From the IMG/VR virus record IMGVR_UViG_3300012979_000178: a stretch of 25,123 nucleotides of DNA; one strand, 5' to 3'. This document shows positions 9,403-24,906 of the stretch, piece by piece. The notes beneath the pieces are model-generated. The model searched no databases. It saw only the letters and a program-made list of their open reading frames with translations, and was not told where the DNA came from. The number at the start of each line of letters is the position of its first letter. The first letter of the stretch is position 1. The stretch is from a virus. The position numbers and the translations under genes are program-made.

Positions 9403-9915
9403 ATGATATTAATATTAATTTTAGCAATAGTTTTTATTATTTTTCTAATCTGTGGAATTATAAGTGATAGCGATTATGGTAATCATATCGTTGTAAATGG
9501 AACTGAAATTTCTTTTAAGACATTTGAAGCTATGTACAATATTAAACCAGAGGCTTGGGAATTAGAAAAAACAAGAATTGTATATAAAAAGCCACATTAT
9601 ACAACTTTAAGTAGAATCGATGGTACCCCATATAAAATGTGGATGCATAATGATAAATATTATTTTTTCTTTAGTTTTCGAGATTATTGTAAATATAGAA
9701 AATTTTTATCTCGATTAGAAGATCTAAAAATTCAAAAAGCTGAATATGAAAAAATGAAAAAAATTACAGATTGTTTTAAAGAAGATATAGAAGAATATAA
9801 AAAAACGCATGAAGAAGAAGTTGTAAAAAAACTTAAAGAAATTAATCAAATAGGCTATGAAATTAAATCCAATGACGGCACAAATTATTTTTGTTTAAAA
9901 AGGAGAGGAAAATAA
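9403..9915 (+). CDS. N-terminally membrane-anchored hypothetical protein
   Basis: RBS GGAG. The N-terminal 20 residues are hydrophobic. Confidence 0.55.
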   Translation: MILILILAIVFIIFLICGIISDSDYGNHIVVNGTEISFKTFEAMYNIKPEAWELEKTRIVYKKPHYTTLSRIDGTPYKMWMHNDKYYFFFSFRDYCKYRKFLSRLEDLKIQKAEYEKMKKITDCFKEDIEEYKKTHEEEVVKKLKEINQIGYEIKSNDGTNYFCLKRRGK

Positions 9916-9995
9916 TGTATAACGCTTATGTGACCACTTTAAAAAACGTACATAAACATCCTAATACCTTTTAAAAACATTTTAATGTAAAAAAT

Positions 9996-10042
9996 TTGGA
10001 CAATAGAATGTATTTATCCTTATTAAAAAATTAAATATAATA
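9996..10042 (+). promoter_or_regulatory. putative sigma-70-like promoter (TTGGACA ... TATAAT) upstream of 10077
   Basis: A -35-like TTGGACA with TATAAT at 10037-10042. The spacing is imperfect. Confidence 0.3.
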
Positions 10043-10076
10043 GAAAAAATATTTATTTTTAAAGGAGAAAATAAAA

Positions 10077-10811
10077 ATGCCTGAATTAAATTTAGCTGGA
10101 TCAAAAATAGGATTTTGGGATGTCTTAGAAAAAGATAGTGAAAAATCTAAAGAAAAACATTAGAGTTATTGGAAATGTAAATGTAATTTATGCGGAAATA
10201 TTTATTCTGTTAGAGGTTCAAGTTTAAATAATGGTCAAAGTCAAAAATGTGGAACCTGTTCTCGTTCTTACAATGTAAAAGATGAGACTGGGCAAAAATA
10301 TAATAAATTAACAGTTTTATATAAAACAGAGTCAAAAAATAATAGAGTAATGTGGAAATGTCGATGTGATTGTGGAAATCATATTGACGTAAGTGGAACT
10401 GATTTAAGGACTGGTGCAGTTAAATCTTGTGGAAAATGCCCAGGAAAAGAAAGCTTAGGAGAAAAATTAATTAGAGAAAAATTGACTCAATTTGGAATTG
10501 ATTTTATCCAAGAATATACTTTTAAAGATCTTATTTTTGAATCTGGTCATTATGCACGTTTTGATTTTTATATACCCTCTCATAATTATATAATAGAATT
10601 TGATGGTATCCAACATTTTAACTATGATAATAACTCTTCTTGGAATACAGAAAAAAATTTTTTAGAAACAAAAAAACGAGATAGTATAAAGAATAATTAT
10701 TGTTTTAATCATAATATTCCAATAATTAGAATTCCTTATGATTATAAAGAGGAGTTAACTGCTTTTGATTTAATTCCTCAAACTTCTAAATTTTTAATTA
10801 AGAAAGGGTGA
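10077..10811 (+). CDS. triple zinc-ribbon (W-x-C-x-C-x-CG ... SCGxC repeats) plus C-terminal DUF559/Vsr-like PD-(D/E)xK endonuclease domain; one in-frame TAG at 10161
   Basis: RBS AAAGGAGAAAAT and ATG at 10077. The frame is continuous with track ORF 10350..10811 apart from the TAG. The C-terminus reads FDFYIP..IIEFDGIQH ... RDSIK...NIPIIRIPY, which fits the DUF559 pattern. It is paralogous to 12336..13187. Confidence 0.6.
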
Positions 10812-10817
10812 AAAATA

Positions 10818-12248
10818 ATGTCAACTCATTGTGGATATGTGGTAAATATTAAAGAATTAAGACCTCACTCTAATGCAGATAAACTTCAAATAGCAACTTT
10901 TTTTGGTAATGATACTTGTGTGGGACTTGATGTAAAATTAGATGATATTGGAATTTATTTTCCCTCTGATTTACAACTTTCTGTAGAATTTTGCGAACAG
11001 CATAATCTTGTTCGCCGTAAGGATGACAGCGGTAACAACGTTGGTGGATATCTTGATCCCGACAAAAGAAACATTCGCACTATAAAACTTCGTGGTGAGA
11101 AGAGTGATGGTCTATTTATGCCTCTTCAGTGCCTCGCTTATACTGGCATTAATCTTGATGACCTTAATATTGGAGATCGTATTGATATTGTAAATGGGCA
11201 TGAAATTTGTAAGAAATATATCCCTCGCTCCAATAGACGTAAAGGTTCTTATTCCGAGGGCAATAAGACTCGTAAACATAAAGTTCCTGTTGCTCCGCTC
11301 TTTGCGGAACACGCAGATACAGAACAACTTGCTTATAATCTTAATGCCTTTAAAGCGGGCGACCAAATTGAAATTACTTTAAAAATGCACGGTACTAGCC
11401 ATCGTGTTGGCTATCTTGAAACCCTTCAGGGATATAAAAGAACATTTGCGGATAAAATTTTCCGGCGTGAAGGTACTCCAGAATATAATTGGGGTTATGT
11501 TGCTGGAACTCGTAGAACTGTTCTCGAAGATTATAATGGCGGTTATTATGGCAGCAACGAGTTTAGAGAAGTACATACTAAATTTTTCAATGGCAAACTT
11601 TGGAAGGGTGAAACTGTATATATGGAAATTGTAGGTTTCACTAATGATGGTACTCCTATTATGTCCAATTGCGAAAACAAAAAATTAAATGATAAAGATT
11701 TTATTAAGCAGTATGGAGATATTACCGTCTTCTCTTATGGTTGCGATCCTGCTGGATATACAGAACTTCCTATGAAAGATACTGGATTGCCTTATGGCGC
11801 AGTAGTTTCTGTTCCAAAATCAGAAATTTACGTATATCGTATGACTATGACTAATGAAGATGGTAATATAGTAGAATACACCCCTGACTTTATGAGATAT
11901 CGTTGCGAACAGATGGGCGTTAAAACTGTCCCTGTTCTTTGGAAAGGTTTTATTCCTTATACTATAGATGATGTTGAATCTGCCATTCCCGGTCATAGAA
12001 TTATACTTAAAGAAGGAGAAAGTGCCGGAGAATGGATTAAAAATGTTGCCGAGCAATATTACGATGGTCCAGATCCGGTTGGTAAGACTCATACTCGAGA
12101 AGGCGTTGTAGTAAGAATTATAAATCGTCCTAAATTCTGTGCTTATAAGCACAAAAATCATTCATTTAAGATGGTTTCTGGAATTATTACTGAGGCCGTT
12201 GCGGATAGCAATATTGAAATTAGCGAAGATATTTTAGCAGAACTTTAA
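10818..12248 (+). CDS. RNA ligase (Rnl2-type nucleotidyltransferase motif KMHGTS) fused to an N-terminal EMAP/Myf-type tRNA-binding OB fold
   Basis: The N-terminal VVNIKELRPHSNADKLQIATF matches the tRNA-binding-domain signature (HPNADKL). Motif I is K-x-H-G-T-S, as in T4 Rnl2 (KIHGTN). There is a GC jump at about 10985. Confidence 0.75.
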   Translation: MSTHCGYVVNIKELRPHSNADKLQIATFFGNDTCVGLDVKLDDIGIYFPSDLQLSVEFCEQHNLVRRKDDSGNNVGGYLDPDKRNIRTIKLRGEKSDGLFMPLQCLAYTGINLDDLNIGDRIDIVNGHEICKKYIPRSNRRKGSYSEGNKTRKHKVPVAPLFAEHADTEQLAYNLNAFKAGDQIEITLKMHGTSHRVGYLETLQGYKRTFADKIFRREGTPEYNWGYVAGTRRTVLEDYNGGYYGSNEFREVHTKFFNGKLWKGETVYMEIVGFTNDGTPIMSNCENKKLNDKDFIKQYGDITVFSYGCDPAGYTELPMKDTGLPYGAVVSVPKSEIYVYRMTMTNEDGNIVEYTPDFMRYRCEQMGVKTVPVLWKGFIPYTIDDVESAIPGHRIILKEGESAGEWIKNVAEQYYDGPDPVGKTHTREGVVVRIINRPKFCAYKHKNHSFKMVSGIITEAVADSNIEISEDILAEL

Positions 12249-12265: not shown

Positions 12266-12302
12266 TTGATTAATTTTAAAGTCTTAAATGGCATAATATA
12301 AT
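12266..12302 (+). promoter_or_regulatory. promoter (TTGATT ... TGGCATAATATAAT) upstream of 12336
   Basis: An extended -10-like TGGCATAAT/TATAAT. It is flanked by an 11-bp direct repeat TTTAAAGTCTT. Confidence 0.4.
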
Positions 12303-12335
12303 GAAAGAAAAGTATTTTTAGAAAGGATTTATATT

Positions 12336-13187
12336 ATGCCATTTAAAGATAGAACTAATATAAAATATGGAAAATTAACTGCAAAAGAATATTTAGGTAA
12401 AAGTATGTGGAAATGCATTTGTGATTGTGGTCAAGAAAAAATCGTGTATGGAGGCCACTTGGAAAGTGGTCATACTTAGTCATGTGGTTGTATTCGTCCT
12501 CCAAGAACTAAATTATATGGACAAAAATTTGGTAGATTAACAGTATTAAACTGGGAAGGAAACGGCAAGTGGCGTTGTCAATGCGAATGCGGAAATGAAG
12601 TATTGGTTCAAACCGATAATTTAAAATCTGGCAATACCAAATCTTGTGGCTGCTTACAAAAAGACAAAGCAAGTGACGCATCATTCATTTCTCTTGTTGG
12701 TAATCGTTATGGAAAACTTTTAGTAATTGAACGAGTAGAAAATAATCGTTTTGGACATGTATGCTATCGCTGTAAGTGCGATTGTGGTGGTGAAACTATT
12801 GTTGATGCTACAAACCTACGTAATGGCAATACCAATTCCTGTGGTTGTATTAAATCCAAAGGAGAAATGATTATCAACAACTGGTTACTAGAACATAATT
12901 TCGATTTCCGCAGTCAATATTCTTTTGACGATTGTATTTTATCTACCGGCCGCAGACCTTTTTTCGACTTCGTTTTATTCAAGAATGATAAACCATATCT
13001 TGTGATAGAATATAACGGCCGCCAACATTACGAAGTAACCGGCGGATGGAACACAGAAGAGCAGTTTGCTAAAACACAACGCCGTGATAGCGAAAAACTA
13101 CAATGGTGTGAAGATAATCACTATCCAATATTGATAATAAAATATGATGAAGATATTGAAAAAATATTGGAGGAAAGATTATTATGA
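12336..13187 (+). CDS. paralogue of 10077..10811: triple zinc-ribbon plus DUF559/Vsr-like endonuclease; one in-frame TAG at 12477
   Basis: RBS GAAAGGATTTATATT and ATG at 12336. It is in frame with track ORF 12603..13187 and shares the repeat pattern W.C.C.CG...N(T/S)(K/N)SCGC. The C-terminus reads FFDFVLF...LVIEYNGRQH...RRDSEK. Confidence 0.6.
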
Positions 13188-14253: not shown

Positions 14254-14267
14254 ACGGAGGAATGATT

Positions 14268-15176
14268 ATGCCAGTACATGACGATCTTGGAACTCGCATG
14301 AAAGAGTTCTATGAACAAGTCCCACGTTTTCGATTAACTAGAAGAATGCCCGTGGTAATTAGACTCGACGGGAAATCCTTCCACACCTTTACACGCGGTT
14401 TTGAAAAGCCATTTGATGAAGTGCTTGGTAGAGCGATGCGAGAGACTATGAAATATCTTTGTGAGAATATTCAGGATTGCGTCCTTGGATATACTCAATC
14501 CGATGAAATTACTTTAATTCTTGTTGACTATAAAGAATTAAATAGTTCTGCTTGGTTTAATTATGAAATTCAAAAAATGTGTTCTATTTCTGCTTCTATG
14601 GCAACTATGGTATTTAATAAATTTTTTGAAAAAGAAGTTAATAAATGGACAAACCAAGCTTTTCCAACTGATTATTTAGGATATAATACTGGGAAAATTT
14701 CAGTTGCTGATATTGAACTAAAAGGTACTTATATAAAATCTCTCAATAAAGGCGCAATGTTTGATTCTCGTTGTTTTAACATTCCAAAAGAAGAAGTAGC
14801 CAATTTGATCTATTGGCGACAACTAGATGCTACGCGTAATTCTATTCAAATGGTAGGTCAAGCTAATTTCTCTCATAAAGAACTTCAAAATAAATCTTGT
14901 AATGATATTCAAAATATGCTTTTTGAAAAGAAAAATATTAATTGGAATGATTTCCCAACTCACTTAAAACGTGGCTCTTGTTGCGTTAAAATAGAGACTT
15001 CTACTGTTTTTGCTATCGAGCATGAAGACGGTACTGTTGAAACTGGTGCCGTTGAGCGACCTCATTGGGAAATTGATCTGGAAATTCCGATCTTCAAAAA
15101 TGAAGGACGAGAATATATTAATCGTCGTATTCTTTATAAAGAAAAGCCTGAAACAACTATTGCTTATATTAATTAA
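14268..15176 (+). CDS. Thg1-like protein (TLP), a 3'-5' nucleotidyltransferase acting in tRNA 5'-end repair or addition
   Basis: VVIRLDGKSFHTF...KPFD...DCVLGYTQSDEITL matches the Thg1 core (VVRLDGRNFHRF...AYGQSDEYSF). The start was chosen at 14268 because its spacing to GGAGG is better than for the ATG at 14262. Confidence 0.75.
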   Translation: MPVHDDLGTRMKEFYEQVPRFRLTRRMPVVIRLDGKSFHTFTRGFEKPFDEVLGRAMRETMKYLCENIQDCVLGYTQSDEITLILVDYKELNSSAWFNYEIQKMCSISASMATMVFNKFFEKEVNKWTNQAFPTDYLGYNTGKISVADIELKGTYIKSLNKGAMFDSRCFNIPKEEVANLIYWRQLDATRNSIQMVGQANFSHKELQNKSCNDIQNMLFEKKNINWNDFPTHLKRGSCCVKIETSTVFAIEHEDGTVETGAVERPHWEIDLEIPIFKNEGREYINRRILYKEKPETTIAYIN

Positions 15177-15987: not shown

Positions 15988-16440
15988 ATGAAACTTGAAA
16001 TTGATCTTGATCTTAATAAAATTGACTATGATTCTATTAATAAATAGATAAAACAAAAAATTGAAGATTTAGATATTGCTAATGTTTATACTATTGATGA
16101 TAGAATTAAAAATGAATTAAATGCTCAGATTAGCCAAGTAATTAATGAAAATATGTATCGAAATTATTGGTCTAATACATTAGATAATAAAACCGAAGGA
16201 CATATTCAAGACGAGCTAAGAATTCTCATTAAAGAAGCAATAACCCCATCAGTGAATAATGTTTTTAATAAAATTTCAGAAGAAGAAATAGAAAAAATGA
16301 TTTTACATATTCTTCCGAAAGCATTAGTTATGCTACTGATAGATAATCTTAAAGGTTCACTTTATTCTTTACAAAATGACCAAACCTACTTAATGGAATC
16401 AGTTATAGAAAATCATATAAACCGTAGATTAAATAGATAA
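15988..16440 (+). CDS. hypothetical protein with one in-frame TAG at 16045
   Basis: Strong RBS AGGAGAAAATTAA and ATG at 15988. It is in frame with track ORF 16153..16440. Confidence 0.5.
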
Positions 16441-16454
16441 GGAAATTAATAATT

Positions 16455-17690
16455 ATGATGAAACTTTCTCCTATTATTACTCATCTTACCGATACTGACC
16501 TTTATAAATTTACTATGTTACAGACTATGTTTCATAGACATACAAATCTTAATGGCACTTATCTTTTTAAATGCCGAAACGCAGGAGTTAAATTTACCAA
16601 AGAAATGATGGATGAGATCAATGCGCAGATTGATCATCTTTGTACTTTGCGCTTTACAGATGAAGAACTTGATTATCTTGGCTCTTTACGCTTTATTAAG
16701 CCTGATTTTATTGAATTTCTTCGCATTTGGCATCCTTTGCGCAGATATGTAAATTGTTATATTTATGATCATCCGGGATGTCCAGATGAAGGAGAACTTT
16801 TTGTCGAAGTTCATGGTCCACTCTTTAACACTATGATGTTTGAAATTTATCTTCTTGCTATTGTAAATGAAGTATATTTTCGTATGAAGTATAATTATCT
16901 TGACCTCATTAATGGCGCGAGAGAAAAACTTTACCACAAACTTAGCGGATTTAATCATTTTGATGAAGAAGGCAATAAAGCCCCTCTCTATACTTTTAAA
17001 TTTGCGGAATTTGGTACCAGAAGAAGATTAAGTCGTGAATGGCAGGATTATGTAATGAAAGAACTTATTGCTACTGGATATTGCGCCGGTACCTCTAACG
17101 TATATCTTGCTATGAAATATGGTATCAAAGCAATTGGTACTTATGCGCATGAATATGTTCAGATGTTTCAGGGTATTCCCGGCATTCAGCTTGCTTATAC
17201 CAACAAAGCCGCTCTTGAAGAATGGTTTGAAGAATATCAGGGCGACCTTGGAACTGCATTGACTGATACTCTTGGCACTGATATTTTTCTTCGTGATTTT
17301 AATAAACTTCAAGCTATGTGTTATACCGGAGTACGTCATGATAGTGGAGATCCTTATGAATGGGGCGAAAAGATTATCGAACACTATCTTAAACTCGGCA
17401 TCGACCCCAAAACCAAAACTCTTCTTTTTAGTGATAGTCTCGATTTTGAAAAAGCACAGGCAATTTATGACCATTTTAATGGGCGTATTAATGTAAGTTT
17501 TGGTATTGGTACTTATCTTACTAATGACACAGGAGTAAATCCCCTCAATATCGTTATTAAACTTCAGTATGTAAATGATCATCCAGTAGCAAAATTAAGC
17601 GACGTAGAAGGCAAAACTATGTGCCAAGATGAAAATTATGCTAATTACTTGGCACGCGCAGTTAATTATAGATTAGAAGAAGGTATTTAA
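16455..17690 (+). CDS. pncB: nicotinate phosphoribosyltransferase (PncB)
   Basis: It tracks E. coli PncB closely: TDLYKFTM, FGTRRRLSREWQ, GTSNVYLA, GTYAHE, RHDSGDP.EWGEK, GIDPKTK.LLFSD, FGIGT.LT, PLNIVIKL, PVAKLSD. Confidence 0.9.
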   Translation: MMKLSPIITHLTDTDLYKFTMLQTMFHRHTNLNGTYLFKCRNAGVKFTKEMMDEINAQIDHLCTLRFTDEELDYLGSLRFIKPDFIEFLRIWHPLRRYVNCYIYDHPGCPDEGELFVEVHGPLFNTMMFEIYLLAIVNEVYFRMKYNYLDLINGAREKLYHKLSGFNHFDEEGNKAPLYTFKFAEFGTRRRLSREWQDYVMKELIATGYCAGTSNVYLAMKYGIKAIGTYAHEYVQMFQGIPGIQLAYTNKAALEEWFEEYQGDLGTALTDTLGTDIFLRDFNKLQAMCYTGVRHDSGDPYEWGEKIIEHYLKLGIDPKTKTLLFSDSLDFEKAQAIYDHFNGRINVSFGIGTYLTNDTGVNPLNIVIKLQYVNDHPVAKLSDVEGKTMCQDENYANYLARAVNYRLEEGI

Positions 17691-20585: not shown

Positions 20586-21275
20586 ATGGCTGTATATGCT
20601 TTATCTGACTTACATGGTAATAAAGAATTATTTAAAAAGGTTAAATCTTTTTTAAATGAAAAAGATACAGTATATTTTCTTGGGGATGCTGCTGATAGAG
20701 GTCCTGATGGTTGGGAACTTATTAAAACAATTTATGAAGACTCTCAATTTATTTACGCTAAAGGCAACCACGAAGATATGCTTGTAAATTCTATTAAAGA
20801 ATTCTGTGAAATGAATTCCAAAAGTGGAGATTGTGATTTACTTTTTTACAACGGCGGTAAACAGACCTTTAATGCTTGGCGTAAAGATGGGGCAAAGAAG
20901 AGTTGGGCTACCAAGCTTGAAAAATTACCGGCTTGGCTTGCTTATATTAATACTAAAGGTCAGCTTATCAGTATGAGTCATGCTGGTTTTACTCCAAAAC
21001 CCAACGAATTTCCTTCTCATAGTGATTTAATGTGGAGTAGAGATCACTTTCTTGATGATTGGGATGAAGAGGTAAAAAATTGTATTATTGTTCATGGACA
21101 TACTCCTATTCTTTTTCTTGCAGAAGATTTAAAAATCAAAGAAGAAGAACTTGAGCTTAAACCGTTATGGTATTGTAATAACAAAAAGGTTTGTATTGAT
21201 TTGGGCGCGCATATGACTAATGCCACAACTCTTTTAAATCTTGATACATTTGAATATTATTTGTTTCAAGTCTAA
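20586..21275 (+). CDS. lambda-PPase-family metallophosphoesterase (Ser/Thr phosphatase or polynucleotide 2',3'-phosphatase type)
   Basis: Motifs SDLHGN, GDAADRG, GNHE, W.RD and HGHT are present. The architecture resembles lambda PPase and the CthPnkp phosphatase domain. Confidence 0.8.
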   Translation: MAVYALSDLHGNKELFKKVKSFLNEKDTVYFLGDAADRGPDGWELIKTIYEDSQFIYAKGNHEDMLVNSIKEFCEMNSKSGDCDLLFYNGGKQTFNAWRKDGAKKSWATKLEKLPAWLAYINTKGQLISMSHAGFTPKPNEFPSHSDLMWSRDHFLDDWDEEVKNCIIVHGHTPILFLAEDLKIKEEELELKPLWYCNNKKVCIDLGAHMTNATTLLNLDTFEYYLFQV

Positions 21276-21342: not shown

Positions 21343-21816
21343 ATGAAAAAAATTTATTTACTTTGTGGTATTCCCGGTTCAGGAAAAAGCACTTGGGCAA
21401 AAAGCCAACTTGATAATAAATCTGTCTGGATTTCAAGAGATCAGATAAGATTCTCTATGGTTTCAGAGTCAGAAGAATATTTCTCTAAAGAAAAAGAAGT
21501 ATTTCGAGAATTTATTAAAGAAATTAATTTAGCAATTAGAAATAAAAATTTTGATAATATTTATATAGATGCAACACATCTTAACACTATAAGTAGATAT
21601 AAAGTTTTGGATAAAATTGCTTTAAAAGATGTTGATGAACTTAATATTATTTTCTTTAATACCCCTTTGAATATTTGTCTCGAAAGAAACTCTTATCGTT
21701 TTGGAAGAGAAAAAGTACCAGAAGAAGTAATTAAAAAAATGTATAAAACTGTTGTTCCTCCTCATCTTGATGATAAATATTTATATAATAATATTATAGT
21801 AAAAGGAGATGAATAA
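21343..21816 (+). CDS. pnk: polynucleotide 5'-kinase, a P-loop domain of the T4 Pnk kinase type
   Basis: LLCGIPGSGKST (Walker A), RD (catalytic Asp region), and a C-terminus with LERNSYRFGREKVPEEVIKKMYK that resembles T4 Pnk ([22 protein letters not shown]). Confidence 0.8.
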   Translation: MKKIYLLCGIPGSGKSTWAKSQLDNKSVWISRDQIRFSMVSESEEYFSKEKEVFREFIKEINLAIRNKNFDNIYIDATHLNTISRYKVLDKIALKDVDELNIIFFNTPLNICLERNSYRFGREKVPEEVIKKMYKTVVPPHLDDKYLYNNIIVKGDE

Positions 21817-21819
21817 ATA

Positions 21820-21855
21820 TTGATTTGGCTTTGTAGCGATTGGCATTTTAATTAA
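21820..21855 (+). pseudogene. 11-codon remnant of a metallophosphoesterase N-terminus ((M)IWLCSDWHFN*), duplicated downstream at 22864
   Basis: A TTG start 11 nt after AAGGAG. The peptide carries the MPE motif I (D-W-H) and is nearly identical to MAIWITSDWH at 22864..22893. Confidence 0.4.
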
Positions 21856-21922
21856 AATGCCGGTCAAAACACAATAAAATATTTAGAACAATTTTCTAAT
21901 TTAATTAAGAGGTGATGTTAAA

Positions 21923-22861
21923 ATGTATAGTGTATATAAAATTACCAATATTATAAATTAGAAAAATTATATTGGTTCAAGTATTAGACCTGAAAAGCGT
22001 TGGAAAGAACATATTAATAATGCTAATAACCCAAATTCATAGGCATATAATTATCCGTTACAATGTGCTTTTCGAAAATACGGAATTGAAAATTTTAATT
22101 TTGAAATTTTAAAAGATGATTTTAATACTCAAAGTGAAATGACAGAATATGAATAGTTAATGATTATTTTTTATGATTCATTGAATAATGGGTATAATCA
22201 AACTTTACAAACAAATTAGAGTGAAATAGCAAAAGAAAATTTAGAAAAATATTTATAGACAATTCGTTGTAAATGTGCTAAAATAGATAAAAATAATAAT
22301 ATTTTAGAAATTTATAATTCTTATCATGAAGCTGCTAAAAAAAATGGAATGGATCCTGATAATTGTGCTAGTTCAATTAGAGATGTTTGTAAAGGAAAAA
22401 CTTCAAGTGCTAAAGATAAATTTATTTTTCGAGATTTAGATGCTAATGATAATATAATTATTTAGCCGTTTAAACCCTATAAAGGCAAAAAAGCAATAAT
22501 TGGTATTCATATAGAAACAAAAGAAGAAATTTATTTTAATTCTATTAGTGAAGCAGCTAAAATATTAAATACAGATCGTTGGAGTATAACCCAATGTATA
22601 CAAGGAGTATCTCGATACTCCAAAGTTAAAAACTATATATTTAGAGAATTAGATTAGAATGGCAATATTGTAGAAGTTGAAAATTCCATAGAAAATATTT
22701 TACAAAAATATAATTAGACAAATCCGGAAATAAATGGTGAAAGACACACTTTTAAAGACTGGTGTAAAATTTATGGAATTTCTGAAAGTTCTGTTAGAAA
22801 AAGAATAAAAAAAGGAATGGGTGTTGTAGAAGCAATTACAACCCCAAAAGAGAGGTGATTT
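21923..22861 (+). CDS. GIY-YIG homing endonuclease (I-TevI/Seg-like) with 8 in-frame TAG codons
   Basis: The N-terminus VYKITNIIN*KNYIGSS...EKRWKEHI corresponds to the GIY-YIG and RWKEH motifs (compare I-TevI IYQIKNTLNNKVYVGS...EKRWKRHF), followed by NGYN. The frame is continuous for 313 codons apart from the TAGs. It ends at the TGA at 22859. Confidence 0.7.
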
Positions 22862-22863
22862 TT

Positions 22864-23429
22864 ATGGCAATCTGGATTACTTCAGATTGGCATTAGTTTA
22901 TTTTTGCCATGACAGAGAATTTATCTGGGGTCCAAGGCATTTTAATTCTGTTGAAGAAATGAATGAAACTATTGTAGATAGACATAATTCTTTGGTTCTT
23001 CCAGAAGATGATGTATATGTATTGGGCGATTTGATGCTTAATGATAATGAAAAAGGTATTGAATTAATTAAGCGTATGAATGGTAAACTTCATATTGCTA
23101 TTGGAAACCATGACACAGCACCAAGAATTGAATTGTATAAAACTTTACCGAATTTAGTAGATATTAATTACGTTCACACATTTAAATATAGAAAATATAA
23201 TTTCTATTGTTCTCATTATCCTACATTAACAGGAAATCTTGAAGCTGAATCGCTTCATCAAGTAGCAATTAATCTATATGGACATACTCATCAGTCGAGT
23301 AAATTCTATGAAGATAGACCATATATGTTTCATTGTGGTATGGATTCAAATGCTTGTTATCCTGTAAATATTGATTACATTATTGATAAGTGTAAAAATA
23401 AAGTGGCTGAATGCATTGAAATGCTTTAA
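22864..23429 (+). CDS. calcineurin-like metallophosphoesterase with a frame disruption after codon 10. It is a possible pseudogene, sequencing indel or recoding site.
   Basis: RBS AGAGAGG and ATG at 22864 give MAIWITSDWH (motif I D-x-H), then a TAG. The remaining motifs (GDLML, GNHD, GHTH) are in the -1 frame, which is track ORF 22887..23429. Confidence 0.55.
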
Positions 23430-23466: not shown

Positions 23467-24906
23467 ATGTATCTTTATCTTATTCCAATTGCCGTTATTG
23501 CTGTTATTGTTCTCTTTTGCCTCGGTTATGTAAAGGCTCCTCCGGATCAGGCTTATGTAATTTCCGGGATGATGAAGAAACCTCGTATTCTAATTGGACG
23601 AGCAGGTTTTAAAGTTCCTTTCTTTGAACGTCTTGACAAACTTGCTCTTGGTGCTATTCAGATTGATGTAAAGACTGCTAGTTCGGTTCCCACTGCTGAA
23701 TATATCAATGTAAGAGTTGATTCTAATGTAAATGTAAAAATTGGTCAGGCTCCTGAAATGCTTGAACTTGCTTGTCAGAATTTTCTTAATGTAAAGAGAG
23801 ATGTTATCAATCAGAAGATCAGAGATTTGCTCGAAGGTAATATCCGTGAAATCGTTGGTAGCATGAAGCTTACTGAAATGGTAAGTGATAGAAAGGCTTT
23901 TTCTGAAAAGGTACAGGAAAACGCAGTACCCGATCTTGCGAGATTTGGTCTTGAGCTTATTTCTTTTAATGTTCAGAATTTTGTAGATGATAATGGTGTA
24001 ATTGATAATCTTGGTATTGATAATGTAGAGCAGATTCGCAAGAAGGCTGCTATTGCTAAGTCTGATGCCCAGAGAGAAATTGCAATTGCTGAAGCTGAAA
24101 ATACTAAAATTGCAAATGATGCTCGTGTAAAGGCGGCTGAAGAAATTGCTGCCCGAGACAATGATCTTGAAATTAAGCAGGCGGCTCTTAAGCAGGCAGC
24201 TGATACTGAAAAGGCTCGTGCAGCAGCTGCTATGGCAATCGAATCTGAAAATCAGAATAAACTTAAAAATATTGCAGCTACGGATGCTGAAATTGCAAAG
24301 GCTGAACGCGAAGCCGATCTGAAGCAGAAAGAAATCGAACTGAAAGAATATGAACTTGACGCTCTTGTCCGCAAGCAGGCAGACGCAGATAAATATGCAG
24401 TAGAGCAGAAGGCAGCCGCAGAACTTGCTGTTCGTCAGAGAAAAGCAGAAGCTGAAAAGTTTGAACGTGAACAGCGTGCAGAAGCTGAAAAGTTTGCAGC
24501 AATTCAGGAAGCAGAAGCAGAAAAAGCAAAGGCTGATGCCGCTAAATATGCCGCACTTGCAGAAGCAGAAGGTATTGCCGCTGTAAAGAAAGCTGAAGCA
24601 GAAGGTATTCGTGCTACTGGTATTGCAGAAGCAGAAGGTATTGAAAAGAAGGCAGAAGCCCAGAAGAAGATGGGTGAAGCTTCCGTTCTTGAAATGTACT
24701 TCCAGATGCTTCCGAACGCTGTAGCAAGTGCTGCCGCACCTCTTGAAAATGTTGGAAACATTACAATGTATGGCGACGGCAATCAATCTAAGCTCGTCGG
24801 CGACGTAATGAAGACTGTAAATCAGGTTACCGAAGGTATGAAAGCTAACGGTATTGATATCGCGTCACTTATTGCTGGCGCACTCTCCAAGAAAGACAGT
24901 AAGTAA
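23467..24906 (+). CDS. floT: flotillin (FloT/YuaG-type SPFH/band-7 protein): N-terminal TM segment, SPFH domain, and an E/A-rich coiled coil
   Basis: RBS AAGGAG. It is collinear with B. subtilis FloT: LEGNIREIVGSMKLTEM...FSEKVQ...DLARFGLELISF; KQADADKYAVEQKAAAE; MLPNAVASAAAPLENVGNIT. Confidence 0.85.
   Translation: MYLYLIPIAVIAVIVLFCLGYVKAPPDQAYVISGMMKKPRILIGRAGFKVPFFERLDKLALGAIQIDVKTASSVPTAEYINVRVDSNVNVKIGQAPEMLELACQNFLNVKRDVINQKIRDLLEGNIREIVGSMKLTEMVSDRKAFSEKVQENAVPDLARFGLELISFNVQNFVDDNGVIDNLGIDNVEQIRKKAAIAKSDAQREIAIAEAENTKIANDARVKAAEEIAARDNDLEIKQAALKQAADTEKARAAAAMAIESENQNKLKNIAATDAEIAKAEREADLKQKEIELKEYELDALVRKQADADKYAVEQKAAAELAVRQRKAEAEKFEREQRAEAEKFAAIQEAEAEKAKADAAKYAALAEAEGIAAVKKAEAEGIRATGIAEAEGIEKKAEAQKKMGEASVLEMYFQMLPNAVASAAAPLENVGNITMYGDGNQSKLVGDVMKTVNQVTEGMKANGIDIASLIAGALSKKDSK

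Follow-up and report, generated by a model that had tools for sequence, protein, structure and literature searches.

How can a phage produce a metallophosphoesterase (MPE) when the gene has received a homing endonuclease gene (HEG) at its 5' end and the reading frame breaks at a stop codon within metal-binding motif I? This question is raised by the IMG/VR virus record IMGVR_UViG_3300012979_000178, a stretch of 25,123 nt (the window, whose numbering is used for all coordinates), in the region from 21,817 to 23,429. An earlier note, made from the sequence of the window, placed a GIY-YIG endonuclease gene there, described the start of the MPE gene as present on both sides of it, and regarded the structure as the scar of a homing or gene-conversion event, with a programmed frameshift, TAG-dependent recoding, or a sequencing indel as alternatives. 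Comparison with related loci makes another answer likely: the HEG cassette brings along a replacement N-terminus and an 8-nt gap that would be skipped by a programmed ribosomal hop, the gap splitting the target of the endonuclease.

The cassette loci were gathered by exact protein look-up and by alignment-based scans of metagenomes and IMG/VR; a scan of IMG/VR with the single HEG sequence returned only 33%-identical relatives, and an alignment query was needed to obtain more. Fetched loci or contigs are given L-numbers and homologous proteins P-numbers. Motif I (S-D-x-H) and motifs II/III (GD...GNH) were located and their frames compared by a script, and individual loci were inspected by eye. 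The HEG-linked set comprises 45 loci, i.e., 34 distinct junction sequences belonging to 19 MPE insert types, to which 2 further types are added. The HEG-less set (L001-L014, L016, and L017) comprises 15 distinct MPE loci, in which the absence of an adjacent family HEG was verified by tblastn.

Anatomy of the locus

The region consists of the following elements.

21343..21816, + strand: AAA_33 (polynucleotide-kinase-like) gene, Pfam AAA_33 E=3.5e-16; left flank of the cassette, intact in the window.
21820..21849, + strand: remnant of the native MPE 5' end, (TTG)IWLCSDWHF, truncated by the cassette and running into AAT TAA (21850..21855).
21850..21922, + strand: cassette leader, containing the stop codon of the remnant open reading frame (ORF) and the conserved motif TGCCGGTCAAAA (21858..21869).
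21923..22858, + strand: GIY-YIG + NUMOD HEG of 311 codons, with ATG at 21923 and a TGA stop at 22856-22858.
22850..22893, + strand: ribosome-binding site (RBS) GAGAGGTGA and replacement N-terminus, ATG..CAT = MAIWITSDWH, with the putative take-off codon CAT at 22891..22893.
22894..22901, + strand: 8-nt coding gap TAGTTTAT, composed of TAG (22894..22896), the spacer TT, and the near-cognate putative landing triplet TAT (22899..22901).
22902..23429, + strand: rest of the MPE gene (FCHDREF...CIEML, TAA at 23427-23429) in the -1 frame; decoding would resume at TTT 22902.

Both copies of the motif I start described in the earlier note are present. The upstream copy (21820..21855) reads TTG ATT TGG CTT TGT AGC GAT TGG CAT TTT AAT TAA, that is, (M)IWLCSDWHFN followed by a stop. 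The second (22864..22893) begins with ATG at 22864 and is indeed preceded by a good RBS, the Shine-Dalgarno sequence GAGAGGTGA (AGGTGA), which overlaps the stop codon of the HEG. A 9-bp hairpin, CAATCTGGA-TTAC-TTCAGATTG, lies within the replacement N-terminus at 22868..22889 and ends 1 nt before the take-off codon; it was flagged by a terminator scan, is confined to the MAIW-type cassettes (the change in L031 is G-U-compatible), and is absent from the MSK-type ones.

The endonuclease matches the Pfam families GIY-YIG (E=3.5e-8, 34.1 bits with a cut-off of 22.6), I-HmuI_NUMOD-like (1.3e-6), and NUMOD1 (5.8e-5), and so combines the catalytic domain with the NUMOD-type DNA-binding module that characterize GIY-YIG homing endonucleases. 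These matches, together with the contiguous HEG-less alleles presented below, bear out the identification of a homing endonuclease gene at the 5' end of the MPE gene. The number of in-frame TAG codons in the HEG is exactly eight, as had been counted earlier. In the leader, the left junction CAYTT is followed in most family cassettes by RTGYNGGTCARAAGTAATAAA, the family consensus of the leader motif. The motif (TGCCGGTCAAAA in the window) is kept even where the endonucleases share only about 55% identity; it might serve as a promoter, act as a regulatory RNA, or belong to a recombination site.

Deletion of 22894..22901 yields the contiguous SDWHFCHD anticipated in the earlier note, within a joined protein of 185 aa that aligns without gaps to the intact homologs of 184 aa at 86-92% identity. 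The joined protein matches PF12850 Metallophos_2 (28.5 bits, cut-off 27) and PF00149 Metallophos (22.6 bits, cut-off 21.5), in both cases from residue 1. The motifs of calcineurin-like MPEs, DxH, GD, GNH[DE], H, and GHxH, are found in one polypeptide only once these 8 nt are skipped.

A mobile cassette with a conserved junction

The comparison with endonuclease-free relatives proposed in the earlier note is provided by P0001-P0010, L016, and L017, in all of which the MPE gene is contiguous. The nearest HEG-less homologs, P0001-P0010, begin MIWLCSDWHFCH, and in L016 the MPE gene starts directly after the kinase gene with ATG ATT TGG CTT TGT AGT GAT TGG CAT TTC TGC CAT (ATGATTTGGCTTTGTAGTGATTGGCATTTCTGCCAT). 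Since these starts match the upstream copy in the window, 21820..21849 is the original 5' end of the MPE gene, cut after CATTTT. The remnant varies with the host of the same cassette, being MIWLCSDWHF in the window and MSIWITSDWHF, the host's own N-terminus, in L032. The possibility that the upstream peptide is a conserved micro-ORF in its own right is thereby refuted, as it is a host-specific native N-terminus.

Three further independent contigs, L015 (JGI), L031 (ENA), and L032 (ENA), carry the same endonuclease and the same junction gattggcatTAGTTTATttttgccatga, with an 8-nt insert, TAGTTTAT, identical in all four. The junction thus comes from assemblies of different projects: the window, JGI 3300041727, ENA ERZ28436081, and ENA ERZ28633334. 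Pairwise identity between the contigs is 93-97% in the HEG, 98-100% in the 52-nt segment from the RBS to FCHD (identical or 1 nt different), 75-85% in the MPE body, and 40-53% in the 60 nt upstream (ungapped). In the window, L031, and L032 alike, exactly 1047 nt separate the left junction anchor from the right one. Identity at the level of the cassette reaches to about 22936, so that about 22902..22936 represents a co-converted tract. The site is therefore polymorphic for the presence of the element, and the element is more similar between genomes than its flanks. As judged from these alignments, the cassette is a mobile homing element of about 1.05 kb moving between diverged genomes.

Among the 392 HEG homologs, those sampled (loci from the protein look-ups and full-length matches of the scans) sit between a kinase and an MPE gene, and one HEG protein, P0137, fronts clearly different MPE bodies in L037 and L038. 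In L015 the first 69 residues of the endonuclease are gone (only 70-311 are present), yet the insert and an intact MPE ORF are kept. In this part of the contig (1..320) an unrelated ORF occupies the contig start, ahead of the truncated HEG; L015 may represent a decaying cassette or a chimeric assembly.

The inserts obey a single rule

In all insert types a sense codon is followed immediately by a stop codon (TAG, TGA, or TAA), then by 0-2 nt and by a triplet matching the sense codon, after which the consensus resumes exactly. The inserts, of 4-8 nt, lie inside motif I, and skipping them brings the consensus back without any residue being added or missing. Written as sense codon, stop, spacer, and landing triplet, they are as follows.

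8 nt: CAT TAG TT TAT (window); CAT TGA GC CAT; CAT TAG AA AAT.
7 nt: CAC TAG C CAC; CAT TAG C CAT; CAT TAG T CAT; CAT TAG C CAC; CAC TGA C CAT; GGT TAA A GGT.
6 nt: CTT TGA CTT; CTT TAA CTA; CTT TAA CTG; CAC TGA CAT; CAT TGA CAC; CAC TAA CAA; TCT TAG TCT.
5 nt: GGT TAG GT (stop and landing GGT overlap).
4 nt: GGT TAG C; TGT TAG C.
Two further types: ACT TAG CT in L162, in a different MPE subfamily; CCT TAG CG TCT in the kinase gene of L016 and L031 (see below).

A stop triplet stands at the start of the insert in 21/21 types, at a probability of 0.075 per type. Landing matches were evaluated against the trinucleotide composition of the window for the 17 types in which the landing triplet and the stop are separate. 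All 17 match the sense codon at two or three of the three positions, with a joint probability of 10^-14.4, a value which, like the others quoted here, is too small because the insert types are not phylogenetically independent, the pattern nonetheless being far beyond chance. Identical landing triplets occur in 7 of these 17 types vs. 0.18 expected, and shuffling of the landing triplets among types gave p<=4e-5. Over the whole family, the landing triplet is identical in eight types and synonymous in six; the rest match at two of three positions or, in the two 4-nt TAGC types, at one. In the window (CAT to TAT) positions 2 and 3 match and position 1 does not.

Inserts are confined to loci with an endonuclease gene directly upstream. 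Where no HEG is adjacent, an insert is absent from all 15 MPE loci and motif I is intact (SDxH[FL]xH). The inserts begin 0, 1, or 2 codons past the His codon and the left junction falls right after CAYTT(Y) in most cassettes; hence, all inserts lie within about 6 nt of the insertion point. Exceptions are L148-L150 (~2230) and L064 (2488), in which an MPE gene beside a shorter or more distant endonuclease homolog has no insert. L148-L150 read SDYHYNHD, with TAT replacing TTT. These cases possibly reflect immunity by substitution or a degenerate endonuclease.

No link was found between the choice of stop codon and TAG recoding, as TAG, TGA, and TAA each occur in both recoded and standard-code phages. 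An exact-pattern scan of IMG/VR for GAYTGGCAYTAG... gave nine matches, all by chance in unrelated frames. When the window and the collected loci were scanned for further frame breaks with a stop and a matching triplet, only the MPE cases and the kinase case described below were found; the remaining candidates are ordinary gene boundaries or out-of-frame TAG triplets (L005 and L014 were inspected by eye).

Both halves of the protein are maintained

The downstream MPE ORF, of 164-227 codons, is uninterrupted in 34/34 distinct HEG-linked alleles. The GD and GNH motifs are kept in all of them and the strict GHxH pattern in 32/34. Each replacement N-terminus begins with ATG or TTG and is provided with a Shine-Dalgarno sequence. 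Its S-D-x-H is invariant but is written with varied codons (Ser as TCA, TCC, TCT, AGT, or AGC; Asp as GAT or GAC; His as CAT or CAC), across cassette lineages whose endonucleases are only 55-80% identical. Because S-D-x-H is kept while its codons vary, the 10-13-codon segment is constrained at the amino acid level. Such a segment is of use only when joined to the rest of the protein. The dN/dS ratio between HEG-bearing alleles cannot measure selection after the insertion, as the divergence of the MPE genes is older than the arrival of the cassettes.

Ahead of the resume point, no ATG, GTG, or TTG is found in the downstream frame in 11/19 frame-shifting types; the downstream ORF is therefore no gene with an initiation of its own. 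Insertions at this point of motif I are absent from all intact homologs. Gene callers annotate such genes as truncated, e.g., P0006 (which begins LALVYFCHD), P0011, and P0042.

A short ribosomal stop-hop as the favoured explanation

The following sequence of events would account for these observations. The endonuclease would recognise the DNA encoding S-D-x-H-F-x-H, the metal-binding motif I (SDWHFCH in the window), and the cassette (about 21850..22901 plus a short co-converted tract) has inserted there, after codon 10 of the MPE gene, cutting off the first 10 codons. With its own RBS and the duplicate N-terminus MAIWITSDWH, the cassette would ensure that the enzyme is still made. Direct joining of this duplicate to the gene would recreate the target, and the 8 nt (TAG TT TAT) would split the site and so confer self-immunity. 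Motif I is presumably intolerant of extra residues, since no homolog has any, and only those inserts that the ribosome can skip would survive. With the stop codon in the A site the ribosome would pause, with peptidyl-tRNA-His on CAU. The peptidyl-tRNA-His would then unpair, slide 8 nt, and re-pair with UAU, where codon position 1 would form a G36-U wobble and positions 2 and 3 would stay the same. Decoding would resume at UUU to give the consensus MAIWITSDWH-FCHDREF... The comparisons establish how the locus is built, that the cassette is mobile, that the insert is real and conserved, that take-off codon, stop, and landing triplet follow a rule, that both halves are intact, and that inserts go with the endonuclease; the hop and its efficiency, the blocking of cleavage by the insert, and the position of the endonuclease cut are inferred. 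It may be speculated that the MPE is made early and the endonuclease late, as the endonuclease itself needs TAG decoding.

It seems fairly probable that the cassettes constitute a large natural family of programmed short stop-hops, by which HEGs of at least two unrelated lineages would protect the sites of their own insertion through a stop-containing gap of 4-8 nt placed in an invariant catalytic motif; ordinary bacterial ribosomes would skip this gap through re-pairing of the peptidyl-tRNA, no more than 10-16 codons after initiation.

Several points weigh against a hop. It is deduced purely from comparative sequence analysis, and the insert types on which the deduction is based lack phylogenetic independence, which makes the quoted probabilities too small. 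The landing triplet of the window is only near-cognate (TAT vs. CAT). The 4-nt types (GGT/TGT TAGC) match at one literal position, their fit requiring equivalence of U and C at the third position, and they could be RF2-like +1 shifts adding one Ser. The exit-tunnel signal behind efficient bypassing in T4 cannot operate here, since the nascent peptide has only 10 residues at take-off. The predicted take-off hairpin (UGGCA...UGCCA) is not significant in the window (z=-0.9); small take-off hairpins are predicted in many variants and strong ones in the GGT/TGT TAGC types (z about -3); they are not universal. The efficiency of the hop may be low, and a suppressor tRNA present late in infection would compete with it, leading to a 32-aa dead-end peptide. 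Finally, repeated homing into fresh alleles could keep the ORFs intact-looking in the absence of selection.

Alternative explanations

The last of these points belongs to an explanation in which the insert is a mere immunity or repair scar and the MPE is dead in the genomes with the HEG, its ORF looking intact through recent, repeated homing. The occurrence of P0137 before different MPE bodies in L037 and L038 does indicate that homing is recent and frequent, and a second MPE gene, one of the phosphatase type, is found in the window at 20586..21275. A dead gene is nonetheless unlikely. It explains neither the in-frame stop that opens the insert in all 21 types (P about 0.075 each) nor the match between the triplet before the resume point and the preceding sense codon; nor does it explain the kept start, Shine-Dalgarno sequence, and synonymous S-D-x-H across HEGs 55-80% identical. 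Downstream lesions are found in 0/34 distinct alleles, and L015 has kept the insert and an intact ORF despite the loss of the first 69 HEG residues. The disrupting scar envisaged in the earlier note is likewise at odds with the intact start, RBS, and downstream ORF of 34/34 alleles and with the strict rule followed by the inserts. Among the alternatives listed there, programmed recoding comes nearest to the evidence, as a hop rather than a shift at a slippery site, and the proposed dependence on TAG has to be abandoned because the sister cassettes use TGA or TAA, also in standard-code phages. A conventional frameshift, either -1 or +2 at CAU-UAG or a decoding of TAG as Gln and then a slip by -1 within the U5 run at 22901..22905, is distinctly unlikely. 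It can draw on the decoding of TAG in other genes of the phage, on the five-U run just downstream of the insert, and on the 4-nt sister types (GGT/TGT TAG C), which resemble the RF2 +1 site and could add a single Ser. Yet there is no X XXY YYZ heptamer at 22885..22905 and CAU cannot re-pair at -1 or +1. The product would have 2-3 extra residues inside motif I (SDWHLVYFCHD or SDWHQFIFCHD), which are seen in no homolog, and the duplication of the take-off codon would have no explanation. Frameshifting of this kind is, moreover, unworkable for the TGA and TAA cassettes, for standard-code phages, and for the in-frame 6-nt types, and in the kinase case it would destroy the P-loop.

Translation of the downstream ORF alone, from TTG 22887 after termination of a 10-codon mini-ORF, would give the N-terminally truncated MPE that the earlier note considered as an outcome. 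Gene callers chose this very start for the relative P0006 (LALVYFCHD). This explanation is very improbable, as the resulting protein would be without the motif I residues Asp and His and the conserved replacement N-terminus would be purposeless; the TTG is a by-product of the codons GAT TGG and is not conserved, with 11/19 frame-shifting types having no start codon there. The location of the HEG within a coding region is typical of group I introns, and one family member is named 'group I intron endonuclease' in the database, but a self-splicing intron, or removal of the 8 nt from the RNA, that would join the remnant to the downstream exon is barely credible. Rfam gave 0 matches at the gathering threshold over the whole window, and a permissive Rfam search (E<=5) of 21700..23100 gave three sub-threshold noise matches (SmY, mir-70, and IS009). 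The 73 nt and 43 nt beside the endonuclease ORF leave no space for a ribozyme core, and there is no G at any possible 3' splice-site position. In the L036-type and kinase cassettes the insert lies downstream of the duplicated junction, so splicing of the remnant to the exon would leave it in place. As to the sequencing indel proposed earlier, or any other artefact of sequencing or assembly, it is practically negligible, since the junction is identical in four independent assemblies of diverged contigs from different projects. A short ribosomal stop-hop thus remains the favoured explanation of the 8-nt gap.

A second cassette in the kinase gene

The same arrangement was found in another gene. 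In L016 (3905..4575) and L031 (~830..1510) the AAA_33 kinase gene has an HNH endonuclease ORF with TAG codons inserted at its 5' end. The cassette has the order remnant (...MKLKKVWLMCGIPHLGKT, followed by two stops), HNH gene, new start, and an 8-nt insert in the P-loop. The new start reads ATG AAT ACT ATG TAT AAG AAG AAA GTT TTT CTT ATG TGT GGT ATT CCT TAG CGT CT GGC TCT GGA AAA AGC. Its insert is CCT TAG CG TCT, and skipping of TAGCGTCT restores the Walker A motif CGIPGSGKS. The predicted hop, CCU to UCU, would have the same geometry as CAU to UAU in the window. The kinase gene of the window has neither the HNH gene nor the insert. Judging from the two sets of sequences, the same design has arisen independently twice, with two unrelated endonucleases and two target genes sharing one architecture.

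A scan of IMG/VR with the HNH endonuclease for more kinase cassettes gave only distant relatives and no further kinase example. In L005 (2530..3426) a GIY-YIG homolog of 36% identity has its place upstream of the kinase gene and not of the MPE gene, with intact genes on either side. Ahead of the kinase remnant there is a small zinc-ribbon-like ORF (MAKTYDTHRFFCIKCGQ... in L016, 3690..3900; ...KKLYCPHCK... in L031, ~640..850), with an apparent frame change between its two CxxC pairs.

Relation to known systems

The closest parallel is gene 60 of phage T4, in which a 50-nt gap protects against nicking by MobA, the ribosome passing over it from GGA-UAG to GGA (Manning & Atkins, bioRxiv 10.1101/2022.08.31.505936); T4 kept the gap after MobA had decayed (MobA cassette: Bonocora et al. 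2011 as cited in bioRxiv 10.1101/2022.08.31.505936). Both systems have a HEG in a conserved enzyme gene and a short non-coding insert near the insertion site that travels along with it, and in both the insert is proposed to interrupt the target of its own endonuclease with the protein unchanged. The T4 situation of a lost endonuclease and a kept insert resembles that of L015. A take-off codon followed by a stop in a HEG-linked insert, as in gene 60, is seen here in the window (CAT TAG) and in 21/21 types. There are also differences. The gap is 50 nt in T4 vs. 4-8 nt here, and no signal set of the gene 60 type (take-off stem-loop, internal Shine-Dalgarno sequence, and nascent-peptide signal) was detected in the cassettes; the nascent chain has 10-13 residues and there is no consistent take-off stem-loop, unlike in gene 60. 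The targets are MPE and kinase genes, not a topoisomerase, and the endonucleases belong to GIY-YIG or HNH lineages, unlike MobA. Gene 60 is part of a split into two functional subunits, whereas here a duplicate N-terminus is supplied and the native one abandoned, and bypass is deduced from sequence comparison. The locus works like a T4 gene 60 bypass cassette and is not a member of that system, having an 8-nt gap, a 10-residue chain, and an MPE target.

Synthetic stop-hops work in E. coli, where a stop lies between matched codons and one amino acid is specified by 9 nt; according to a 2016 review by Atkins, no natural occurrence of in-frame stop hopping was known (PMC5009743). Exactly this arrangement is present in the sister cassettes CTT TGA CTT, TCT TAG TCT, CAC TGA CAT, and CTT TAA CTA, and CAT TAG TT TAT of the window represents the same idea with a 2-nt spacer and a change of frame. 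The synthetic constructs are engineered and of low efficiency, whereas the arrangement described here is natural, recurrent, and apparently selected.

The byp elements of Magnusiomyces capitatus mitochondria are also short mobile inserts in essential coding regions, apparently tolerated because translation skips them between matching codons beside a slow-to-decode codon. They are of 27-55 nt; unlike the present ones, they are longer, GC-cluster-like, mitochondrial, and untied to endonuclease self-immunity. To our knowledge, the reported cases of efficient natural bypassing come down to essentially a single phage system, that of T4 gene 60 and its homologs, and to a single lineage of yeast mitochondria. 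Another parallel is provided by MobE in nrdA of Aeromonas phage Aeh1 and by the T4 Seg and Mob endonucleases, with GIY-YIG or HNH genes in or beside a conserved enzyme gene, presence/absence polymorphism between related phages, and co-conversion of flanks. We know of no description of an N-terminal duplication with its own RBS and a stop-containing mini-insert for elements of the MobE/Seg/Mob type, and no description of the present cassettes was found in the searchable literature.

The feature is best described as a HEG cassette with a replacement N-terminus and a short programmed gap in the coding sequence, and represents a new form, minimal and widespread, of the principle known from T4 gene 60. 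If borne out by experiment, the cassettes would be the first family of stop-hops known from nature, and bypassing would be a recurrent, evolvable route by which selfish endonucleases achieve self-immunity with an invariant protein motif left unaltered. Hopping would be selectable with almost no cis signals and with a nascent chain of about 10 residues. N-terminal duplication would be a third way for an endonuclease to live in a gene, besides introns/inteins and split subunits, and gene callers would be systematically mis-annotating such genes as truncated, as in P0006, P0011, and P0042. The 19 or more natural variants, differing in stop, spacer, frame, and landing match, would offer a ready-made mutational series for the rules of bypassing.

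TAG recoding and other features of the window

The window has a GC content of 31%, and every gene in it is encoded by the + strand. In-frame TAG codons cluster in a small number of genes, with eight in the HEG, seven in the 651-aa ORF at 646..2601, and one or two in others; the TAG-bearing ORFs are 156..635, 646..2601, 10041..10811, 12297..13187, 16380..17690, and 21923..22858. Most genes of the window have no in-frame TAG and end in TAA or TGA. The presence of in-frame TAG in a subset of otherwise intact genes indicates a TAG-reassigned phage. The residues that align with the TAG positions of the HEG vary and are polar, Q being frequent among them. No tRNA gene was found within the 25-kb window. 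A search of GenBank phages for close relatives gave only three weak matches, all to the region of the flotillin gene, which encodes an SPFH/flotillin protein at 23467..24906.

Two further genes of the window encode enzymes of RNA metabolism:

10818..12248: RNA ligase (PF09414).
14262..15176: Thg1-like tRNA-His guanylyltransferase (PF04446).

Together with the AAA_33 kinase (21343..21816) and the MPE (22864..23429), these look like an RNA/tRNA repair module. Both endonuclease-targeted genes are the kinase and the phosphoesterase of this putative module.

The RNA ligase gene is flanked by two paralogous ORFs, 10077..10811 and 12336..13187, with repeated CxCxCG-type Cys clusters and in-frame TAG. 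Both share a C-terminal segment, ...FDF..(I/V)EFDG.QH...K..RD..K, which we take to be PD-(D/E)xK/Vsr-like nuclease sequence; the two ORFs, neither of which has a Pfam match, are possibly further homing endonucleases. At 3231..5780 the window encodes an 849-aa protein with matches to the Major Vault Protein shoulder domain (PF11978, 1.1e-20) and also to a vault repeat (PF17795), behind which comes a long coiled-coil tail. In the related contigs, gyrB is contiguous in L015 (638 aa) and is called in L016 as two pieces, one of 452 aa and a C-terminal part, about 500 nt apart (9828..10327), possibly through another insertion element.

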